From a phage, in sequence record PZ386966.1: a stretch of DNA of 64,000 nt. One strand, written 5' to 3'. A program made the translations under genes and the position numbers. Below are positions 351 to 36,445 of this stretch, piece after piece (position 1 is the stretch's first letter; each line of letters begins with the position of its first letter). The notes beneath the pieces are model-generated. The model saw nothing but the letters and a program-made list of their open reading frames with translations. It searched no databases and was not told the DNA's origin.

Positions 351-1250
351 CTACTTGCCTACTGACAAAGGTGCTTCAATCTTTCCTGCATGTTGGTAGT
401 TACTAATTCCACCGATAAAGTCACTTGCGGTAAGATGTTTCAGGTCACTTAAAGTATTAAGTTGTAGACCAATCTCAAAAGTTGGTGCATGGAACTCTTC
501 ATTGTTCATCAGTTCATAAACCTGCTTCATATGATTCTGATAAATCTGAGTATCCCCAAAGACACCTATCAAGTACCGTGGAGTGTATCCAGTCATCTTA
601 CAAAGAACTTCCAGAATAAAACCATAAGATGCAATATTAAACGGAAGTCCTAAAAAGGTGTCTACTGAACGCTGATACCACTGTAAGTCAACTTCACCCT
701 CGTTAGTAATATAAATCTGAAACAGAACATGGCAAGGTGCTAGAGCCATTGAGTTTGCTGCAATATCTGCTGCATTCCAAGCATTCACAAGCATGTAACG
801 GTCTGTGATATCACCCTTCATCTTCGTTACTAAGGTCTCTAGCTGGTCTACAACACAACCGTTATGACCTTCAAAGTTTCTCCACTGAACTCCGTAGATT
901 CTTCCACCTGCATCTTCTAACCAATCTTGTTCAGAAGAATAGTTAGAGCTTAACCAACGTTTAAAATCATCTGACCAGATAGTCCAGCGTTCCCCATCAT
1001 TTTCATCCCAAGTGCGATAACGGAGTTCGCCAAGTTTATTCTCACCATTCAGGAACCATAAAGCTTCCCCAATAACTTGCCGTGTAAACACCTGTTTAGA
1101 TGTTAAGAGTGGGAAACCAGTACGCATATCAAAACGAAACTTAGGTGGAGCAAATGCAGAGATAACATCTCCAGTTCGTGTAGTACGCAGTTCACCGACT
1201 GATAAAACATGGTTCAGGATATTTTTGTAACTTGTATCTGCTTGTGACAT
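351..1250 (-). CDS. thyA: thymidylate synthase
   Basis: 299 aa; conserved active-site region ...ALAPCHVLFQ... and overall ThyA-like sequence. Confidence 0.9.
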   Translation of the reverse strand: MSQADTSYKNILNHVLSVGELRTTRTGDVISAFAPPKFRFDMRTGFPLLTSKQVFTRQVIGEALWFLNGENKLGELRYRTWDENDGERWTIWSDDFKRWLSSNYSSEQDWLEDAGGRIYGVQWRNFEGHNGCVVDQLETLVTKMKGDITDRYMLVNAWNAADIAANSMALAPCHVLFQIYITNEGEVDLQWYQRSVDTFLGLPFNIASYGFILEVLCKMTGYTPRYLIGVFGDTQIYQNHMKQVYELMNNEEFHAPTFEIGLQLNTLSDLKHLTASDFIGGISNYQHAGKIEAPLSVGK

Positions 1251-2054: not shown

Positions 2055-2570
2055 TTATTTAACCTCAAAAACTGGCTCAAGAGCCAATATAAAGTCTACA
2101 CAGTCATCTTCTTCATCCAGAATACCATCAAAGTTCTTAGGAACGAAGTCGAAGAGGCTCATAACAAAACAGTCAGAAGTGACCCTGATAGTCCCTCCAA
2201 TGTTCTCTACAGTCAACACTGTACGACTTTCTTTTACCTCCCTCAGAAGATTACTCACAAAGTCATCTAAGAAGTACTTCATCAGTGACTTAAAACCTTT
2301 AGGGTAATCTGTACCAGAGTATGTTTCAATCTGAGGTACAAGCTTAACATTTATACTAGTCTTTGTTAAGAATGCACTAGAGAACATACTATCAGGTAGC
2401 TTACAAACAGTCTTTCCAGTACCTTCATGTTCAATCTCAACAAAACCAGCTTCGTCGCCACATGTGACTATTTTAAAAGATGCTTCATTCTCATGCTGCG
2501 AAGCCATAAACTTTTTGAGCATCACTTTAAGGAAATCTGCATGAGCATCTTGTAAGAAGATATCAATCAT
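2055..2570 (-). CDS. hypothetical protein
   Basis: 171 aa ORF in operon context, abuts neighbours. Confidence 0.4.
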   Translation of the reverse strand: MIDIFLQDAHADFLKVMLKKFMASQHENEASFKIVTCGDEAGFVEIEHEGTGKTVCKLPDSMFSSAFLTKTSINVKLVPQIETYSGTDYPKGFKSLMKYFLDDFVSNLLREVKESRTVLTVENIGGTIRVTSDCFVMSLFDFVPKNFDGILDEEDDCVDFILALEPVFEVK

Positions 2571-2583
2571 AGTTAATCACCTA

Positions 2584-2943
2584 TTATGGGAACAGACACT
2601 TAATGTCATCGTTTTTGAAAACGAAACTTGTGTAGTTATGACCATCAACATCCAGCCAAACAGCCTGAACATCTACACCATCAAGATTTTGGTAAAGCTC
2701 TTTGATGAAGTGGTCTTTTACAATCTGACTGCTAGTTGTTTCCAACTTAATGTTAGAGATTGCTGAACCTACAGCCATATAGCCCATGACACGTTTCTTC
2801 TCAGTATGCTTAATCTTACCATCTTTGTAAGCCATAATGAGATTGGAAAGAATCTTTACACCATAATACTTCTCAAGGTGAGTAGGTACACCATAAAAGC
2901 CTAATGCAAAGTTTTCAGAGTGGATAATGTTTTCACGTTTCAT
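2584..2943 (-). CDS. hypothetical protein
   Basis: 119 aa ORF, co-oriented. Confidence 0.4.
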   Translation of the reverse strand: MKRENIIHSENFALGFYGVPTHLEKYYGVKILSNLIMAYKDGKIKHTEKKRVMGYMAVGSAISNIKLETTSSQIVKDHFIKELYQNLDGVDVQAVWLDVDGHNYTSFVFKNDDIKCLFP

Positions 2944-4265: not shown

Positions 4266-5366
4266 TTACTCATAATCCCTAATAACTAGCCCTACAGGAA
4301 ACTGTAAAGAACCTTTACGAGTCATCTTCTGGAACTGAACAGTTAAAGGTTTCCCGATAAACTCTTCAGGATGTTCAGCAAGATACTGTTTCTTCTCGTG
4401 TGTAGTTTTCCATGAAACATCTACAAAGACGTTAGGAAGAGTCTCTACAACGAACTTACCATGACCACGCTTATCGGTCTTTACACCAGTCACTTTAAAC
4501 TCTTCAGTGTGCATCTTCTTGTGCTTAATCAAGAAGTATGAACGGTGACAACACTCATAGAAGGAGTCTTCAGAGATTGAACGGTACATTGCACCTTCAA
4601 ACTTAACTTCAACCCACTTATCATGAGCTTCATCAAACTCTTCCCAAGAATTTACACGACGAGACTTAACAGGGACAACTTTACAGCCGTCTCTAAAGTC
4701 ATTCAATGGTGAAGTCTCAATAATATCTCTACGCTCAGGCCACGGCTTAGTGCTGTCACAGATATCGTACCAGTAGAACTGGAGTAGATGTCGGTCTGGA
4801 TTGTCTTCATTTTTAATCATGGAGACAATATCTTCTAAGTCCCACCCATGAGCATAAATCTCTCCATCAAATTCATCAACGTCTTTATGGAGCCTCAACA
4901 TAGTCATAATGTCAGGTGTTAGCTCAGTAGGTATTTTATAAACAGTATTCTCACGAGAATAAGCCGTGAAACTAACTGAATCATCACCTCTTGAAATTCT
5001 ACAACGTACACCATCAAGTTTTGGTTGAGCATCAGCAGGGAACTTCAGATACTTTGCATGACTAACCTTTGCAGCATCATGAGCAAGCTGTACACCTACC
5101 TTCTCAGTACTCTGTGCAGACTCTTTTGTGTAAGCATAACCTTTACGGTCAACTTGCTTTTTATACTTAGCAGCAACTTCAAAGAGAGCTTGCTGTTCAG
5201 CGTTACGCTCATTCTTTTTACCGATGTTTTTAGGTTCTGCTGTGTACTCTTCAAACATCATCTTGCCATTTTCTTTACCGTAGGTTGTAATAACTTTGTC
5301 ACCTACAGCCACACATGACCAGACATTGAAAGAGCCATCTTTATTTTGTTTGTATAGAATTGTCAT
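4266..5366 (-). CDS. ATP-dependent DNA ligase
   Basis: Adenylation motif I KLDGVRC; likely start at MTILYKQ (ATG 5364-5366) with GAGGA RBS upstream. Confidence 0.75.
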   Translation of the reverse strand: MTILYKQNKDGSFNVWSCVAVGDKVITTYGKENGKMMFEEYTAEPKNIGKKNERNAEQQALFEVAAKYKKQVDRKGYAYTKESAQSTEKVGVQLAHDAAKVSHAKYLKFPADAQPKLDGVRCRISRGDDSVSFTAYSRENTVYKIPTELTPDIMTMLRLHKDVDEFDGEIYAHGWDLEDIVSMIKNEDNPDRHLLQFYWYDICDSTKPWPERRDIIETSPLNDFRDGCKVVPVKSRRVNSWEEFDEAHDKWVEVKFEGAMYRSISEDSFYECCHRSYFLIKHKKMHTEEFKVTGVKTDKRGHGKFVVETLPNVFVDVSWKTTHEKKQYLAEHPEEFIGKPLTVQFQKMTRKGSLQFPVGLVIRDYE

Positions 5367-7212: not shown

Positions 7213-8008
7213 TCAATACACTCGCAAGGTGTACCAGTTCTCTTATGAACTTCTCCGCATTTCTACGGAGTGTCGGACTATATCACGTAGTAGTAATACT
7301 ACCGTTGCACTTGGGAATGGTCATTAGCTTACCAACCTACTCTACTCAGTTCATACATTAAGTATGCTTTTCGATAGTCTCTGAACGTTTCTCTGTTAGG
7401 AATCTCTATAATCATGTTATTTACTCAGGTAGTCAATTGCCCTTTGCATATTATCAACGCTATCTGCAAGTAACCCTAAAGCCCTATTGCAATTGTGGCA
7501 CAACATACCTCTTACTTTTCCGGTTTTGTGGTCATGGTCAACGACAAGTTTAGCTTTATGCCGTGAACTATTCATGATAAAACCTTCACCGCCACAAATT
7601 TGACATTTGTAATCACAGTTGCGAAGTAGGTTTTCAACCTCTTCTCTTTCTAAACCATATGTTCTCAGGTAGTAATTCTTAACTCTACCTTTCTCTCCGC
7701 AATGTGAAGAACAATAAACTTGCCTTGCTGTTCTAGGCATGAACACCTTCTCACAGCTAGGACATTTCTTAGTAAGAACCCTATGTTCTGCTCTTCTGTC
7801 AAATTTTAATACGCAACTTCTGCACCGTTTTTGATTGTATTGGTATGGTTTAAACTCTGCACCACACTCAGTACACAATCTTTCTTTGTAACCTGCCATT
7901 GTCTCTCTCCTTTGCTTTAGGAGTCCTAACAGAGACTTCGCTGCTGATTACCATATCTTTACAGACTTAGGCTTCCAGCAATTCACAACGTTTTACATGC
8001 GCCACTGA
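7207..8008 (-). mobile_element. intervening sequence in DNA polymerase gene (putative group I intron) carrying an HNH endonuclease ORF
   Basis: Polymerase motif B is split across the flanks (..KNGIYA / LFGAGDEK); endonuclease ORF with its own strong RBS lies between; boundaries approximate. Confidence 0.5.
7417..7899 (-). CDS. HNH homing endonuclease
   Basis: HNH core ..VVDHDHKTGKVRGMLCHNCNRALG; AAGGAGAG RBS upstream; not in frame with polymerase N-terminal segment. Confidence 0.8.
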   Translation of the reverse strand: MAGYKERLCTECGAEFKPYQYNQKRCRSCVLKFDRRAEHRVLTKKCPSCEKVFMPRTARQVYCSSHCGEKGRVKNYYLRTYGLEREEVENLLRNCDYKCQICGGEGFIMNSSRHKAKLVVDHDHKTGKVRGMLCHNCNRALGLLADSVDNMQRAIDYLSK

Positions 8009-22281: not shown

Positions 22282-23351
22282 TTAACCAGCACCCAATCTT
22301 TTTAGGTGGTGAGAGAAAAACTTTTGACTCACTTAATAAGCACTACCCAAAAATCTTTGAACTTTATAAACAACAAAAAGCACAAGATTGGTCAGAAGAT
22401 GAGTTCCCTTTTGAACAATCACGTCTTGATTTTGAGAGTGTCCCAGCATCAATGTCAGGTGTAATGCTTGAGATTCTTAAGTGGCAATGGGAAGCAGATA
22501 CTCAAGTTGCTAAGAGCTTGGCATTTGCCTTTGCACCCTTTATCTCTGATGACATTTATGCAACTGCAATTATGAAGCAGTCTGAGATTGAAAACCTACA
22601 TGCTCTTACTTACTCGGAGATTGTAAGACAATGTATTAAAAACCCTGAAACAATCTTAGATGAGATTAACCAGAATGTTGCTGTGCAAGACCGATTAAAA
22701 ACTGTGAATCGTGTTCTTGAAGAATTACTGGATGAAGGGATAAACTACCGACTGAGTTATGTCCGTGATTCACTTCTGGACAAAGACCCTTTACACTTCC
22801 ATAAAGTGATTCTGAAAGGTCTATTTGCAGTGACTGCACTGGAGGGTATATCTTTTATGGCATCCTTTGCATGTACTTTTGCACTTGATGCTCAAGATAA
22901 ATTTCAGGGTATTGCTCAAGCTGTCCAGAAGATTATGCTTGATGAAATCCTTCACACTAAAATTGATATTGAAGTTTTAAAAGAAACTTTAAGAGATGAT
23001 GCGTGGCAGAAAGCTTTTCAACAAATTCTTCCAGAGATTAAAGTAATCTTAGATGAAGTAGTTGAAAGTGAAGAGAAATGGTCGTATTATATCTTCTCCG
23101 AAGGACGTGCTGTAGTTGGCTTAAATACAAAGCTTCTTCATGAGTGGGTTTACTATAATGCTGCCCCACTGTATGATATGTTTGGCATTCCCAGAGATTT
23201 TGTAGCTCCTAAAGAACCACCTTTGAAGTACATGATTAAGAAGATGGAAATTGATAAAGAGCAGAATGCTAATCAGGAGCAACAGAACGGTGCGTACCTA
23301 TTGAATACTGTTGTAGATGATTTGAATAGTGGATTTTTAGAGGTTCCTTAA
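22278..23351 (+). CDS. nrdB: ribonucleoside-diphosphate reductase small subunit
   Basis: Ferritin-like di-iron protein; likely start MINQHPIF at 22278 with AGGAG RBS. Confidence 0.8.
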   Translation: MINQHPIFLGGERKTFDSLNKHYPKIFELYKQQKAQDWSEDEFPFEQSRLDFESVPASMSGVMLEILKWQWEADTQVAKSLAFAFAPFISDDIYATAIMKQSEIENLHALTYSEIVRQCIKNPETILDEINQNVAVQDRLKTVNRVLEELLDEGINYRLSYVRDSLLDKDPLHFHKVILKGLFAVTALEGISFMASFACTFALDAQDKFQGIAQAVQKIMLDEILHTKIDIEVLKETLRDDAWQKAFQQILPEIKVILDEVVESEEKWSYYIFSEGRAVVGLNTKLLHEWVYYNAAPLYDMFGIPRDFVAPKEPPLKYMIKKMEIDKEQNANQEQQNGAYLLNTVVDDLNSGFLEVP

Positions 23352-23593
23352 TGACTTATGTAATTTACTCCAAAACTGGATGCCCTCAGTGTGAGACTGC
23401 AAAGAATTTCGCAAAAGTTCGTGGTATTGACCATGTTGTGAGAATGTTAGGGCAGGACTATGAACTATCAGACCTGATGGATATTGCACAGATGCCAGTT
23501 CGTCAGATGCCATTCATCATGAAAACCGATGGACAAAACCTAAAACCTGTTGGGACGCTACAGAATTTTATGGCAGAGGTGAATAATGCTTAA
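23351..23593 (+). CDS. glutaredoxin/NrdH-like redoxin
   Basis: 80 aa, CPQC active site near N-terminus, adjacent to nrdAB. Confidence 0.65.
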   Translation: MTYVIYSKTGCPQCETAKNFAKVRGIDHVVRMLGQDYELSDLMDIAQMPVRQMPFIMKTDGQNLKPVGTLQNFMAEVNNA

Positions 23594-23792
23594 ACGCATT
23601 TGGGAAGGTTTGGTTGTTGATGCACCAGCTATTGTGATTGGTATGCTTATTGTTAACCTATTTACTGACTTTGAACAAGGTTCATTGTTTGGAGCCATGT
23701 TACTATGGGTTATCTTCGAAATATTAGAGATACAGTTAGGTATCACTGAAAAACTAAGAGAACTCTTTGCGAAGTTTTCTAAAAAGATTTAA
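23586..23792 (+). CDS. small membrane protein
   Basis: 68 aa with two hydrophobic segments. Confidence 0.35.
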   Translation: MLKRIWEGLVVDAPAIVIGMLIVNLFTDFEQGSLFGAMLLWVIFEILEIQLGITEKLRELFAKFSKKI

Positions 23793-30141: not shown

Positions 30142-31923
30142 ATGACTAAATCACTTTATGCAGTACCAGCAGGTCTTAATGCAGATGCTTACAAGGCATC
30201 ACATATATATCAGTATCCAGATGCTACGCAATATCTTATGTTGAACCTGACACCACGTAGTGACAAATGGTTTAACAGCCCCTTAGCAATTGATGGTGTG
30301 GTGGCTTTTGGTATTCAACGTTTTGTTAAAGATTACTTGATAGACCACTGGAACGCAACTTTCTTTGAGCGTGATAAAAAAGAAGCAGTTGACGAAATCT
30401 TAGAAGTCATGAATGGTGTTCTGGGTAAAGATGCTATCGGTCGAGAGCATTGGGAAGCACTTCACGACTTAGGTTATCTACCAGTTGAAGTATACGCTGT
30501 AGAAGAAGGCACAGTTGTCCCTATGCGTGTTCCGATGATTGTTTTCCAGAACACTGTTTCAGGTTTCCATTGGGTAGCAGGTTATCTGGAAGATGCTTTC
30601 TCTGCTGAGATTTGGAAGGCTTGTACCATTGCAACTATTGCATTGCACTACAAACGTATCTGTAAGAAGTGGGCTGACCTTACTTGTGACAACGACTTGC
30701 ATTTACCTTATCAGTGCCATGACTTTGCTATGCGTGGTATGTCCGGCTTTACTGATGACGCATTTAACGCTGTAGGCCACTTAACCAGCTTTAAAGGAAC
30801 TGATAGCTTTCCTGCTGTGTATACGGCTAAACGAATCTATGGACAGTCCTACCCAATCTCTGATATTGGTAGTTCTGTACCAGCCACTGAGCACTCTGTA
30901 ATGTGTGCAAACATTGCTTGGGAAGGTGGTAATGAATTGATTGAAGAAGAAAGACGCTTCAAAGGTGAGTTGCAAACCTTCCGTCGCTTCTTAACAGAGA
31001 CTTACCCGACTGGTATTGCAAGTATTGTTTCAGATACTTATAACTTCTGGAGAACTGTGTCAGAAATCTTACCAGCACTTCGTAAAGAAATTATGGAACG
31101 TGATGGTAAACTGGTAATTCGTCCTGACTCTGGAGACCCTGTACACATTGTCACAGGTTATAAAGCAATCCACTTAGAGTGTGCTAAAAAGGCTTATTAT
31201 GAGCACCTAAGCAAGCTGGAAGCCAGCGACACAATGTTGAATGCTGTTCTGAACATGAAGCTTGAAAACATCAACTATGGTATTGCTGGATGGCTACTGT
31301 CAGAAGGCTACGAAATGGTTGTTGACAGAGAAGACTTTGAAGCTGCTGATACGGTGATGTTGAAAGATGCTTATATGGTTGGTTCTGCAAACGTTGTAAC
31401 ACGCCCTGTAGCGGAGATTGATGGAGCTATTAAGACACTGTACAACATCTTTGGGGGAACTATTAACTCTAAAGGGTTTAAGGTACTGGATGAGCATATC
31501 GGTCTTATCTATGGCGACTCTATCACGCTGGAACGTGCAAACGAAATCCTGAAGCGTCTGTATGAAATGGGTTTTGCAAGCTCTAACGTAGTGTTTGGTG
31601 TAGGCTCTTACACTTACCAGTACATGACTCGTGACACCTTTGCATTTGCTGTCAAAGCAACTCTTGCAAGCATTGGTGGTAAAGAGATTATGCTTGCAAA
31701 AGACCCTAAAACAGATAGTGGTGTTAAGAAATCTGCTTTTGGTGGTGTAGCACCTATGTGGGACGGTGATAAGCTGAAAGCTGTAGATGGCTATGGGTTC
31801 CAGAGTTTTGCAGATGTACTTGACCACCCAGCTTGTGCCTTACGTTTAGTCTTTAGTGACTCTGAGCAGTTCGGTTACACAACTCTTGGTGATATTCGAA
31901 ATAATATTGACAAGCAGCTTTAA
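30142..31923 (+). CDS. nicotinamide phosphoribosyltransferase (NAMPT/NadV)-like enzyme
   Basis: 593 aa; N-terminal DAYKASHIYQYPD resembling NAMPT DSYKVTHYKQYP; immediately downstream of Prs-like gene. Confidence 0.75.
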   Translation: MTKSLYAVPAGLNADAYKASHIYQYPDATQYLMLNLTPRSDKWFNSPLAIDGVVAFGIQRFVKDYLIDHWNATFFERDKKEAVDEILEVMNGVLGKDAIGREHWEALHDLGYLPVEVYAVEEGTVVPMRVPMIVFQNTVSGFHWVAGYLEDAFSAEIWKACTIATIALHYKRICKKWADLTCDNDLHLPYQCHDFAMRGMSGFTDDAFNAVGHLTSFKGTDSFPAVYTAKRIYGQSYPISDIGSSVPATEHSVMCANIAWEGGNELIEEERRFKGELQTFRRFLTETYPTGIASIVSDTYNFWRTVSEILPALRKEIMERDGKLVIRPDSGDPVHIVTGYKAIHLECAKKAYYEHLSKLEASDTMLNAVLNMKLENINYGIAGWLLSEGYEMVVDREDFEAADTVMLKDAYMVGSANVVTRPVAEIDGAIKTLYNIFGGTINSKGFKVLDEHIGLIYGDSITLERANEILKRLYEMGFASSNVVFGVGSYTYQYMTRDTFAFAVKATLASIGGKEIMLAKDPKTDSGVKKSAFGGVAPMWDGDKLKAVDGYGFQSFADVLDHPACALRLVFSDSEQFGYTTLGDIRNNIDKQL

Positions 31924-31976
31924 AAGTATATGATAAGAGGCTCCTACGGGAGCCTTTTTAATTTCTGGAGAATGCT

Positions 31977-32321
31977 ATGGACAACCTTTCCATATGGTTT
32001 AACAATAAACCTGTACAACCGAAATACTTACAAGTTGCCTATACAGACATCCTTAAAGTTCTCGGTAAAGAAAAGTTTGAAAAGTTTTGTGAAGGTATCT
32101 ACAATCACCACTGCCAATTTGCTACAAAAGAAGGTATGTTTGTCATAGAACAGTTCTTTGGCAGAGACCCAGATGACTCCGAAGAGATTAGCTTTGTAAT
32201 GAAATACATGATAGAGTATATTGAAAATCGTGGATTCGAAGTTAATCCTGAATTTTATGAGCATGAGGGTGTACCTTTAGCAAAAGGTTTCGATGGCATA
32301 CTCATTAACTGGACTTGGTGA
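31977..32321 (+). CDS. hypothetical protein
   Basis: 114 aa ORF. Confidence 0.4.
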   Translation: MDNLSIWFNNKPVQPKYLQVAYTDILKVLGKEKFEKFCEGIYNHHCQFATKEGMFVIEQFFGRDPDDSEEISFVMKYMIEYIENRGFEVNPEFYEHEGVPLAKGFDGILINWTW

Positions 32322-32326
32322 AAACT

Positions 32327-32662
32327 ATGAAAATCAAAGAGATGAACATCAACATTATCTTAGAAGAACGTTGGGAAAACATTAAGAAGCCTGAAGGTGG
32401 TAAAAAGTTCCTTAACAAAATTTTAGTAGCAGCTAAAGAAGAACTGACTGGCAAGATTGCAGCAGCAATCACAATAAAAGTCTGTGTAAAAGGTCTTCCA
32501 CAACATCACCAATTTGCACTTGACGAGTTTAAAGAAAGCTTCTACAATCCAAACAAACAGATGCTTGAAAGTAACTTTGCAGTATCTACAAGTATCGTCC
32601 ATGACAGAAGCTTTATCCTTTACAAGAATATGAGAGGTGAGTCATGCAAGCATATTGGATAG
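32327..32662 (+). CDS. hypothetical protein
   Basis: ORF 32315-32662, start uncertain. Confidence 0.3.
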   Translation: MKIKEMNINIILEERWENIKKPEGGKKFLNKILVAAKEELTGKIAAAITIKVCVKGLPQHHQFALDEFKESFYNPNKQMLESNFAVSTSIVHDRSFILYKNMRGESCKHIG

Positions 32663-32820
32663 AAATTTTACTATCACTTGGTAGTGTAGCAGTGTTTGTT
32701 TACCTTCTTTGCAAGTACTATGCAGAGTACAAGAAGTGTGACTACTGCAATGGGGAAGGGTATACAAGGGCAGGTTGTTGCCCTATGTGTGGTGGTTCTG
32801 GTAAAATGTTTAATAAGTGA
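32644..32820 (+). CDS. small membrane-anchored DnaJ-type zinc-finger protein (58 aa, below ORF-track cutoff)
   Basis: Manual translation: hydrophobic N-terminus then CDYCNGEG...CPMCGGSG (CxxCxGxG x2); GAGG RBS. Confidence 0.4.
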   Translation: MQAYWIEILLSLGSVAVFVYLLCKYYAEYKKCDYCNGEGYTRAGCCPMCGGSGKMFNK

Positions 32821-32848
32821 TTTAACAGTAAACTAAGAGGAAAGTATT

Positions 32849-35215
32849 ATGCGCATGGTAAACGACCACGCAGAAGTGATTAAGAGTTCAACTTCTTTGG
32901 AGACATCTCAAGCACAGATTACAATGACACCTGAAATGTTCAGCCTTTTGAGTTCAGGTGTATACACATTCAAAGAAAGGGCAGTGATTCGTGAACTGTC
33001 ATGTAACGCAGTAGATGCTCAAAAAGAAGCTGGAAAAGAGAACATCCCATTCCATGTGCATTTACCTACTCGATTTGAGCCTTACTTTGAAGTCCGTGAC
33101 TTTGGAACTGGTTTAACCCATGACAAAGTAATGAGTTTGTATCTGAACTATGGGGCTTCTACGAAGAATGACTCCAATGATTACATTGGTGCAATGGGTA
33201 TCGGCTCAAAATCCCCATTTGCAATTGCTCAGTCATTCACAGTATCTAGCTATGTTGATGGTGTTGTTAATAAGTACTCTGTTTACCTTGAGAATGGTAT
33301 CCCTCAAGTAACTAAGCTTACTACCAACCCAACAAATGAACCCAATGGTTTAGCTGTACGTGTAGCAGTTGCTGACCATCGTATTTCAAAGTTCTTTGAA
33401 GAGGCTGGTCATGTATACTCATACTTTGCTGTAAAACCAGAAAGTAACATTGTATATGATGATGTATTAGCAGATATGAATGTCATTGCCCGTGAAGAGG
33501 GTGTTTATGATGCTATGATTCATAAGCAAAGCTGGCGTTCTAGTGGCAACAGGACAGAGTTTAATGTGGTGATGGGTAATATTTCCTACCCAGTGAACAT
33601 GGAAGCATTACTTGGTGATGATTTCTTCAAAGTCTTGCCAGAGTTTTTCCGTAGGAGCGTAGACCTTGTAAACATCTACATGCCTATTGGTTCAGTGGCT
33701 ATTGCAGCTTCTCGTGAAGCATTGCAGATGAATGACACGACAAAAAATGTTATCATCGAGGCTACTAAAAAGATAACTGAAGCCATTACAAAGGATGTTA
33801 TCAAGAAAGTTAACAGTCAACCTACACTCATGGATGCTGCACAGGCTTATGCTGAGTTACGTTTAAACTCACGAGAGATGTTTAATGCTGTGTGTCCAAA
33901 GCTAGAGTGGGGTGGTGTTAAGCTTGATTCTCTGGAAGAAGAATTACTAAACATTCGTCGTGGGATTATCTACGCAGAAGACGGCTCAGTCATTTATGAA
34001 CGTGACGGTAAAGGTAATATTAAGGTTGATAGGAACGGGAATAATATCCCCAAAGTAGATTACCTATACAATCCAGTTGCTTATGTCAAGTTCAACTCTT
34101 TGGAGAGTAAGATTCGTGCAACATCGCTTTCCTACACTCAAGAGGCGAGTATGTTCAATATCTTTGGCGCAATGCGTAAAAGTCAAATTGAACAGTTTTT
34201 GTTTGTTATAAACGACCGTCGCAATAAAAATGGTACTGAGAAGACTGTAGGCCGCAATCAGATTCTGCGTGGTGCATGTCGAGACTACGCTAACGAGTCA
34301 AGCCTGTTCCACAGATACAATGGTATTGTGTTTGTATTCTCGACTGAAAAAGAGTTAGATGATTTAATCAACCTACATAAACTTGATAAAAGTTTGTTAA
34401 AGATTGTGAAGATGTCTGATAAGGAGCACCATTATCAGCGTAAAGAAGCTGTGAGGGGTGTTGTAAAACTCTGGAAAGCTGTTCCATCAGAAACTAAAGC
34501 TTCATACACAGAGGTGTCAGAAGACCTAGATACAATTGAAGAACCCCAGCTTTATATCAAGGCAGTAGGCGACACAGTTGATGGTGAATGTTTTTGCTCA
34601 TCCCCAGAAGATGTAGCTAAAACAATTGCTAATGTTATAGGAAAAACAGTCTATGTTTTCCGAAAAGCAAATTGGAAAAAGATACCAGAAGACTGGATTG
34701 GAGTAGATGAGAAGCTATTGAATGACAGCTTAACTGATGTTCACTGGATTAATCATAACAGGTATATGACACGTATCTATATGAATGGTGTCCTTGACCT
34801 TACAAGTAGTTGGATTATTGCCAGAAACTTTACGTTTAATAACAAGAAGATTTCTCGCGGGTATTGCTATTCACGAGATACAAACAAAACCATCTTCTTA
34901 GAAGGTAATGAGAATGCTGTTGAGGCAATGTTTGGTAAGATTCAGTATGTGGCTGCACCGTTTGCATACACTTACACTACCAGTGTTCTTCAGGATTTGA
35001 AGTCATGCCTTGACAATGATACAAAACTGTACAAAAAGATTAAGAAAGCGGGTGACCGCATGGTTATTAAACTGACAAACTACCTTTCAAAAAGAAAACA
35101 AGAAAACTTCTTGCTTTCCCATTTAGATTGGAATAAAGTGTCACCCATCGAAGTGAGTAAGTTCTTAGGCTTTGATGTGAAGTGTGTTCCAGAAGGAACT
35201 ACAGTTTACGATTAA
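32849..35215 (+). CDS. rIIA: rIIA-like protein
   Basis: 788 aa; N-terminal Bergerat-fold ATPase-like motif VIRELSCNAVDAQ; followed by rIIB-like gene. Confidence 0.6.
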   Translation: MRMVNDHAEVIKSSTSLETSQAQITMTPEMFSLLSSGVYTFKERAVIRELSCNAVDAQKEAGKENIPFHVHLPTRFEPYFEVRDFGTGLTHDKVMSLYLNYGASTKNDSNDYIGAMGIGSKSPFAIAQSFTVSSYVDGVVNKYSVYLENGIPQVTKLTTNPTNEPNGLAVRVAVADHRISKFFEEAGHVYSYFAVKPESNIVYDDVLADMNVIAREEGVYDAMIHKQSWRSSGNRTEFNVVMGNISYPVNMEALLGDDFFKVLPEFFRRSVDLVNIYMPIGSVAIAASREALQMNDTTKNVIIEATKKITEAITKDVIKKVNSQPTLMDAAQAYAELRLNSREMFNAVCPKLEWGGVKLDSLEEELLNIRRGIIYAEDGSVIYERDGKGNIKVDRNGNNIPKVDYLYNPVAYVKFNSLESKIRATSLSYTQEASMFNIFGAMRKSQIEQFLFVINDRRNKNGTEKTVGRNQILRGACRDYANESSLFHRYNGIVFVFSTEKELDDLINLHKLDKSLLKIVKMSDKEHHYQRKEAVRGVVKLWKAVPSETKASYTEVSEDLDTIEEPQLYIKAVGDTVDGECFCSSPEDVAKTIANVIGKTVYVFRKANWKKIPEDWIGVDEKLLNDSLTDVHWINHNRYMTRIYMNGVLDLTSSWIIARNFTFNNKKISRGYCYSRDTNKTIFLEGNENAVEAMFGKIQYVAAPFAYTYTTSVLQDLKSCLDNDTKLYKKIKKAGDRMVIKLTNYLSKRKQENFLLSHLDWNKVSPIEVSKFLGFDVKCVPEGTTVYD

Positions 35216-36404: not shown

Positions 36405-36420
36405 TAAGTAATTTCTTAAA

Positions 36421-36445
36421 AGGCTGCTTCGGCGGCCTTTTTTAT
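36421..36445 (+). terminator. intrinsic terminator
   Basis: GGCTGC-TTCG-GCGGCC then TTTTTT. Confidence 0.6.

Follow-up and report, generated by a model that had tools for sequence, protein, structure and literature searches.

In Felix O1-like phages, the stretch just upstream of rIIA holds a small open reading frame (ORF) whose predicted 58-aa product joins a hydrophobic N-terminus to a pair of cysteine motifs of the kind found in DnaJ zinc fingers. This raises the questions of whether the ORF is a genuine gene, what kind of protein it would encode, and whether its place beside rIIA reflects a shared function. The ORF was analysed within a window of 64,000 nucleotides (sequence record PZ386966.1) from a Felix O1-like phage (Felixounavirus), within which segment 31900-33300 shares 96.4% identity with E. 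coli O157 typing phages 1 and 15 and ~94-95% with many further Felixounavirus genomes. The reading frame starts with ATG at 32644 and ends with TGA at 32818-32820, and its 58-aa translation, taken from the ORF list, is MQAYWIEILLSLGSVAVFVYLLCKYYAEYKKCDYCNGEGYTRAGCCPMCGGSGKMFNK. The original prediction, made from the letters of the window, had credited it with a GAGG ribosome-binding site, a hydrophobic N-terminal helix, two CxxCxGxG motifs and a position next to rIIA, and each of these elements was recovered: GAGGTGA lies at 32634-32640, the Kyte-Doolittle hydropathy (19-residue window) peaks at 2.11 over residues 5-23 within an AF2-predicted helix, the motifs CDYCNGEG and CPMCGGSG start at nucleotides 32737 and 32779, and rIIA starts at 32849, 28 nt 3' of the peptide stop. 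The features of the locus are the following:

31907..31934, plus strand: sigma-70-like promoter TTGACA-N16-TATGAT heading the operon (agrees with the consensus at 11 of 12 positions)
31935..31958, plus strand: terminator-like hairpin closing the NAMPT transcript (10-bp stem, then a T-run)
31977..32321, plus strand: variable first gene of the operon, 114 aa, phrog_20372 (profile match, E 1e-55)
32327..32662, plus strand: upstream gene, 111 aa, phrog_4262, overlapping the start of the peptide gene by its last 19 nt
32634..32640, plus strand: Shine-Dalgarno sequence GAGGTGA (read from the sequence; GAGG core 6 nt from the ATG)
32644..32820, plus strand: 58-aa coding sequence, stop codon included (ORF list; end-to-end match to phrog_3931)
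32653..32721, plus strand: predicted transmembrane helix, residues 4-26, with the invariant Glu7 (AF2 helix; hydropathy)
32737..32760, plus strand: first CxxCxGxG motif, CDYCNGEG (C32, C35, G37, G39), which aligns to the motifs of DnaJ cysteine-rich (CR) domains
32779..32802, plus strand: second CxxCxGxG motif, CPMCGGSG (C46, C49, G51, G53), invariant in a 15-sequence alignment
32849..35215, plus strand: rIIA (phrog_612 RIIA, E 5e-189), in the same orientation as the peptide gene

The gene order in the operon is therefore the variable gene where present, the phrog_4262 gene, the 58-aa ORF and rIIA. Nearly all Felixounavirus loci have this promoter, either 737 or 387 nt ahead of the peptide ATG, and the two distances correspond to the presence or absence, respectively, of the phrog_20372 gene, which some Felixounavirus carry and most of the fetched loci lack (a 350-nt promoter shift and matches of 76% coverage). 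A similar promoter-like site is present in the Mooglevirus Sf17. Since the promoter directly adjoins the hairpin that closes the NAMPT transcript, the predicted transcription start falls inside the hairpin sequence; the Tribble record has a terminator annotated at the matching position. Further downstream, rIIB is preceded by a second promoter-like site and followed by a terminator at 36418-36441. The host-type promoter and the company of the rII genes suggest that the 58-aa gene is expressed early; a search of the literature on Felix O1 transcriptomics and on phage CXXCXGXG proteins returned no expression data for it. The translation signals are constant features of the locus: a Shine-Dalgarno-like purine tract stands ahead of the peptide ATG in every locus examined, and the Shine-Dalgarno sequence together with the exact 19-nt overlap with the upstream gene is kept in Felixounavirus, Suspvirus and Mooglevirus.

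An ORF of 58 codons is short enough to arise by chance or to mark an untranslated RNA element, and its length is what would favour such a reading. The substitution pattern points the other way. Among 23 distinct Felixounavirus alleles, the variable sites at codon positions 1, 2 and 3 number 7, 6 and 31, and pN/pS is 0.089 in this frame only, the two shifted frames giving 1.84 and 0.96. Comparisons between genera give a dN/dS of 0.2-0.34, with dS at or near saturation, and both cysteine motifs are kept at 27-57% identity across genera (15 sequences). Six-frame translation of the window contains three CxxCxGxG motifs, compared with a mean of 0.14 in 200 shuffles, and none of the 200 shuffled windows had a neighbouring pair. 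No Rfam family came near threshold in a structured RNA search, which argues against an RNA element. The substitution pattern and the family alignment thus effectively refute a chance or non-coding origin, which is judged exceedingly improbable. The third CxxCxGxG of the window (CQICGGEG) belongs to a separate 160-aa cysteine-rich ORF at 7417..7899 on the minus strand, which looks like an endonuclease VII- or HNH-type nuclease.

Conservation in related phages had been proposed as a check on the original prediction, and it proved strong. Megablast placed the region in 215 phage records and tblastn recovered at least 90% peptide identity in 215 records, with the gene intact in essentially all of them; on this basis it is effectively universal across the genus, and orthologs are also present in other genera. 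Four database proteins of 63 aa (P0003, P0005, P0006 and P0007) are frameshifted versions of the peptide that enter the +1 frame (32696..32836). They form single-member clusters, and the records phiWec174, GE_vB_B3 and NJ12 show a one-base length difference in the region that matches them; these versions could be either sequencing errors or losses tolerated in the laboratory. On these comparative grounds, the 58-aa ORF of Felix O1-like phages is a real gene and a strongly conserved one, and the case illustrates that an ORF of fewer than 60 codons can be firmly validated from comparative data alone.

The gene had been predicted to be unannotated, and this part of the prediction has to be withdrawn, since orthologous coding sequences are annotated across many public records, though patchily. 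It corresponds to FDI04_gp080 in NC_041979, to Tribble_112 (labelled 'hypothetical membrane protein' and cross-referenced to Felix O1 NP_945023.1), to bas63_0083 (Bas63 g83, labelled 'putative membrane protein') and to ORF 64 of UAB_Phi87, which equals Felix01p243 (PMC4837284). The SUSP1 ortholog AVU07_agp080 is assigned to phrog_3931 and cross-referenced to Felix01p243, and the window peptide itself matches phrog_3931 with an E-value of 5.1e-33 (residues 1-58 on profile positions 1-59 of 59). Two records carry the label 'heat shock protein', and some records omit the gene. In CHB7 (MK562504) the conserved ORF at locus positions 2501..2677 was missed and 'gp2' was called in another frame (2613..2753), and in EP1 (OR892555) the ORF at locus positions 2501..2674 was left without annotation. 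What was already known is thus the ORF itself, which has entries in GenBank and PHROGs and was included in two functional screens, with its domain type loosely noted ('heat shock protein'). The present analysis adds a firm test of coding selection, a family spanning Ounavirinae and Krischvirus-like phages, an anti-TRAP-like reading with one zinc, a predicted topology, the invariant Glu7 and evidence against a functional link with rII.

Relatives of the peptide fall into two genomic settings. Orthologs in Suspvirus (CHB7, EP1) and Mooglevirus (Sf17) share ~50% identity and occupy the same slot, in the order NAMPT, hypothetical genes, ORF and rIIA; a more divergent member on a short metagenomic contig also lies directly ahead of an rIIA gene. 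In RB49, JSE, Phi1 and related metagenomic T-even contigs, a relative of 52-59 aa follows the nrdH glutaredoxin gene and precedes 55.2. These T-even relatives always start 11 nt before the nrdH stop (JSE 2495..2653; contigs 520..699 and 5001..5177, in locus coordinates), an overlap that implies translational coupling to the redoxin. RB49 Q7Y3T0 and Sf18 A0A291AZ75 are direct family members. The window has a glutaredoxin gene of its own (23351..23593), whose stop is overlapped by a 68-aa hydrophobic ORF (23586..23792, plus strand). The latter was considered as a paralog and rejected, as it has no cysteine motif and is unrelated; it therefore offers no explanation for the nrdH linkage in Krischvirus. 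T4 rIIA.1 was likewise rejected as a positional homolog, being a 67-aa, cysteine-free, soluble protein of a different PHROG. Dozens of other small phage proteins, many of them BFVD entries, share the knuckle fold, and small DnaJ-like knuckle proteins are common in phages; most of these differ from the present family in that they have no membrane helix at the N-terminus or contain several pairs of motifs. The literature on phage CXXCXGXG proteins yielded nothing beyond a Q-like protein and DnaJ-like inserts in DNA polymerases of the HMO-2011 type.

The reading of the C-terminal half as a DnaJ-type zinc finger attached to a membrane anchor was borne out at the level of family profiles. Single-sequence searches remained below the cut-offs: Pfam PF00684 (DnaJ_CXXCXGXG) scored 15.8 bits (cut-off 32.7) and covered only profile positions 42-65 of 65, DUF5351 scored 18.6 bits (cut-off 27), NCBIfam NF058604 RtpA scored 11.4 bits (cut-off 65), and the NCBIfam DnaJ models scored far below theirs. 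The family profile, in turn, matched the E. coli DnaJ cysteine-rich domain 1exk with an E-value of 8.8e-12 (the whole finger aligned separately with either half of it), the human DNAJA3 finger 2ctt with an E-value of 1.7e-6, and B. licheniformis anti-TRAP (3lcz_A) with an E-value of 0.0019 (query 30-53 on chain positions 10-33, equal length). The AF2 model, built on an 11-sequence alignment (mean pLDDT 75.6), places residues 4-26 in a helix, with a small beta knuckle after it; the N-terminal transmembrane helix is the sole helix, with none after the knuckle. Foldseek ranked anti-TRAP first (probability 0.97), followed by DnaJ CR domains, Q-lambda and BSD2, all at E-values of at least 0.25, which for so tiny a domain carry no significance by themselves. 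Among solved folds, anti-TRAP and the DnaJ CR domains come nearest. An exhaustive HMMER scan of 1.84 billion representatives gave 1259 matches at E <=1e-3, comprising a handful of full-length small relatives and, for the remainder, multi-repeat CxxCxGxG proteins and true DnaJ proteins.

Ten residues are invariant in the 15-member alignment, which extends down to 27% identity: Met1, Glu7, Cys32, Cys35, Gly37, Gly39, Cys46, Cys49, Gly51 and Gly53. An extra cysteine, Cys45, occurs in most members and is replaced by Pro in P0012, P0058 and P0110; since it is not universal, the two CxxC pairs are taken as the zinc ligands. With only two motifs, the knuckle could hold one Zn(Cys)4 centre at most, as in anti-TRAP, whereas DnaJ has two interleaved ones. 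That the knuckle binds zinc is inferred from these conserved ligands. Neither Pfam nor NCBIfam gave a match to a J domain with its HPD motif, for which 58 aa leave no room.

The orientation of the N-terminal helix was predicted from charge. Among 15 sequences, the N-terminal tails contain Lys or Arg in none and Glu in all, and the part on the C-terminal side of the helix is net positive. According to the positive-inside rule, the acidic tail and net basic C-terminal part predict an N-out/C-in topology with a cytoplasmic knuckle, and a reducing cytoplasm would make the zinc site chemically plausible. The linker that follows the helix is not basic in the Suspvirus and Mooglevirus orthologs, so the prediction leans on the acidic tail and the basic C-terminus. 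The acidic tail can be regarded as a trait of the family, because many of the unrelated CxxCxGxG repeat proteins retrieved by HMMER have instead a basic N-terminus that resembles a signal. Moreover, Glu7 sits at the outer end of the helix and is accompanied by Ser or Thr at +4 in 13-14 of the 15 sequences. The invariance of Glu7 and the frequent Ser/Thr suggest that the helix makes a specific contact and is more than a mere anchor.

Two published screens bear on the requirement for the gene. In PhageMaP, which used barcoded knockouts of Bas63, the 58-aa ORF is gene 83 (g83) and a fitness below 0 was the criterion of essentiality (bioRxiv 10.1101/2024.10.10.617714). The three replicates for g83 were +0.25, +0.11 and +0.48 in S17-1; +1.27, -0.07 and -0.17 in the second laboratory-strain sheet (MG1655 by its position); +0.10, +0.51 and +1.16 in the defence sheet that by position is TerY-P; +0.39, +0.66 and +0.88 in the one that by position is AVAST type 4; +0.04, +0.12 and -0.68 in a sheet with strong depletion of g79 and g80; and +0.77, +0.66 and +0.81 with qatABCD (bioRxiv 10.1101/2024.10.10.617714). 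The six Bas63 sheets thus contain no convincing conditional phenotype for g83, with fitness at or above 0 in most replicates, and the PhageMaP paper mentions g83 nowhere (bioRxiv 10.1101/2024.10.10.617714). In the CRISPRi-ART screen, SUSP1 agp080 was targeted by 7 guides and scored 1.05, 'Not Fit', and SUSP1 rIIA scored 1.83, 'Semi-Fit' (PMC11879866). Since the Bas63 knockouts are fit and the SUSP1 gene is classed as 'Not Fit', the gene is dispensable in laboratory E. coli.

The same data address the link with rIIA that the adjacency implied. With qatABCD, the replicates were -1.26, -1.30 and -1.61 for rIIA (g84) and -1.05, -2.46 and -2.45 for rIIB (g85), and both genes were confirmed as counters of QatABCD, with plating efficiency down by 10^4-10^5 (bioRxiv 10.1101/2024.10.10.617714). 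Unlike rIIA and rIIB, the 58-aa gene is not required for QatABCD resistance, the one rII-dependent phenotype measured, and a functional link with rII is therefore unsupported. Of the original suggestion, a host-interaction or exclusion factor is still a candidate role, the adjacency stands, and the idea of a shared function is weakened both by the fitness of g83 knockouts under QatABCD and by the position of the T-even relatives beside nrdH. A position beside rIIA does not imply a common function.

Taken together, the overall picture, held somewhat more firmly than even chances would allow, is that of an accessory, probably early gene for a membrane-tethered knuckle of the one-zinc DnaJ/anti-TRAP type that binds protein. 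Confidence is much higher for a real gene with this architecture and lower for a protein-binding effector. The product would cross the inner membrane once, its short acidic N-tail lying outside and its C-terminus inside, and its cytoplasmic part of ~30 residues would fold round one zinc through Cys32, Cys35, Cys46 and Cys49. The knuckle would most likely form a membrane-held surface, on the cytoplasmic side, at which a host or phage protein is captured, blocked or retained; anti-TRAP and the plant protein FIP are the precedents for considering it a protein-binding module. The helix, with Glu7 and Ser/Thr at +4, would probably make contacts within the membrane, either by self-association or with a membrane partner. 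Strict conservation of a gene that is dispensable in the laboratory usually marks an accessory function of use under certain conditions. A more specific version, in which the peptide acts as a decoy or inhibitor tethered to the membrane, grabs a host machine associated with the inner membrane and matters only in natural hosts or unscreened conditions, is improbable as it stands; its candidate targets are the FtsH protease, the only one with a precedent (plant FIP-FtsH5), and a membrane-acting defence system beyond those screened. PADLOC gave no match at E-values up to 1 for the 58-aa peptide or its Krischvirus relative.

Other functions can be envisaged for a small membrane protein with these motifs. 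It may be a redox-active thiol-disulfide protein whose CxxC pairs exchange disulfides, with the domain perhaps in the periplasm or working with a phage redoxin. The DnaJ finger and two plant membrane proteins, CYO1 and LQY1, have been reported to exchange disulfides, the paper on FIP cites other activities for DnaJ-like fingers (PMC5915565), the T-even relatives invariably follow the nrdH glutaredoxin gene with the 11-nt overlap, and most members possess the fifth cysteine, Cys45. Nevertheless, Cys45 gives way to Pro in three members, the invariant glycines are those of the zinc-knuckle motif, the charge distribution predicts a location in the reducing cytoplasm, and the Ounavirinae gene does not stand beside a glutaredoxin gene, where the small ORF present is unrelated; a redox role is considered rather unlikely. 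The peptide might instead assist the RIIA/RIIB membrane-protection module in counter-defence, as a helper or third subunit required for it. Such a role would agree with the location directly 5' of rIIA, as part of one operon, in Felixounavirus, Suspvirus, Mooglevirus and the divergent metagenomic contig, and with a CRISPRi-ART score that tops those of the non-rII neighbours. It is made quite unlikely by the QatABCD scores, which are positive for g83 and negative for rIIA and rIIB, by the Krischvirus-like relatives, which are unlinked from rII, and by T4 rIIA.1, which is unrelated.

A further alternative is a membrane protein of lysis or superinfection exclusion (a holin, an antiholin or an injection blocker), in which the cysteine-rich tail would be merely a regulatory cytoplasmic domain. 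The small size, the single transmembrane helix and the charged C-terminus fit this description, and older papers had left the Felix O1 holin without an assignment. However, the gene belongs to an operon with a host-type promoter and the rII genes, away from the lysis genes, the holin annotation in Bas63 rests on other genes, and both knockout and knock-down are free of cost, all of which renders this role very unlikely.

Should a partner be found, the peptide would be among the smallest membrane-tethered effectors known in virulent enterobacterial phages, and a function would be assigned to a gene that all Felix O1-like phages retain, including several in use for Salmonella and E. coli biocontrol. 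If the decoy reading were true, it would define a phage-specific class of minimal effectors, each consisting of a transmembrane helix plus one knuckle, common to Ounavirinae and RB49-like T-even phages.

Three known systems resemble the peptide in different ways. The DnaJ (Hsp40) cysteine-rich domain PF00684 shares the CxxCxGxG motif and a similarity at the profile level, but DnaJ has four motifs, two interleaved zinc centres, a J domain and C-terminal domains, whereas the phage peptide has two motifs. Anti-TRAP (RtpA, Bacillus) is a protein of 53 aa with two CXXCXGXG motifs and one zinc, its function is zinc-dependent, and it binds and blocks TRAP (PMC2896485). Both are tiny proteins with one CxxCxGxG pair, and anti-TRAP is the top fold match and aligns at equal length in the profile comparison; anti-TRAP, however, is soluble and trimerises through a C-terminal helix, while the phage peptide has an N-terminal membrane helix and no C-terminal one. 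Enterobacteria are not known to possess TRAP. The layout of the whole peptide resembles that of mature Arabidopsis FIP, which consists of a short lumenal tail, one transmembrane domain and a stromal C4 finger with two CXXCXGXG motifs, and which binds the membrane protease FtsH5 (PMC5915565). By its published description, FIP has the same layout and the same sidedness as predicted from charge for the phage peptide; OR, CYO1 and LQY1 are likewise DnaJ-like zinc-finger membrane proteins without a J domain. FIP differs in being a plant thylakoid protein, reported only from land plants, and the comparison is one of description rather than of sequence. Within these bounds, the analogy with FIP provides a lead to FtsH as a possible partner of the phage peptide.
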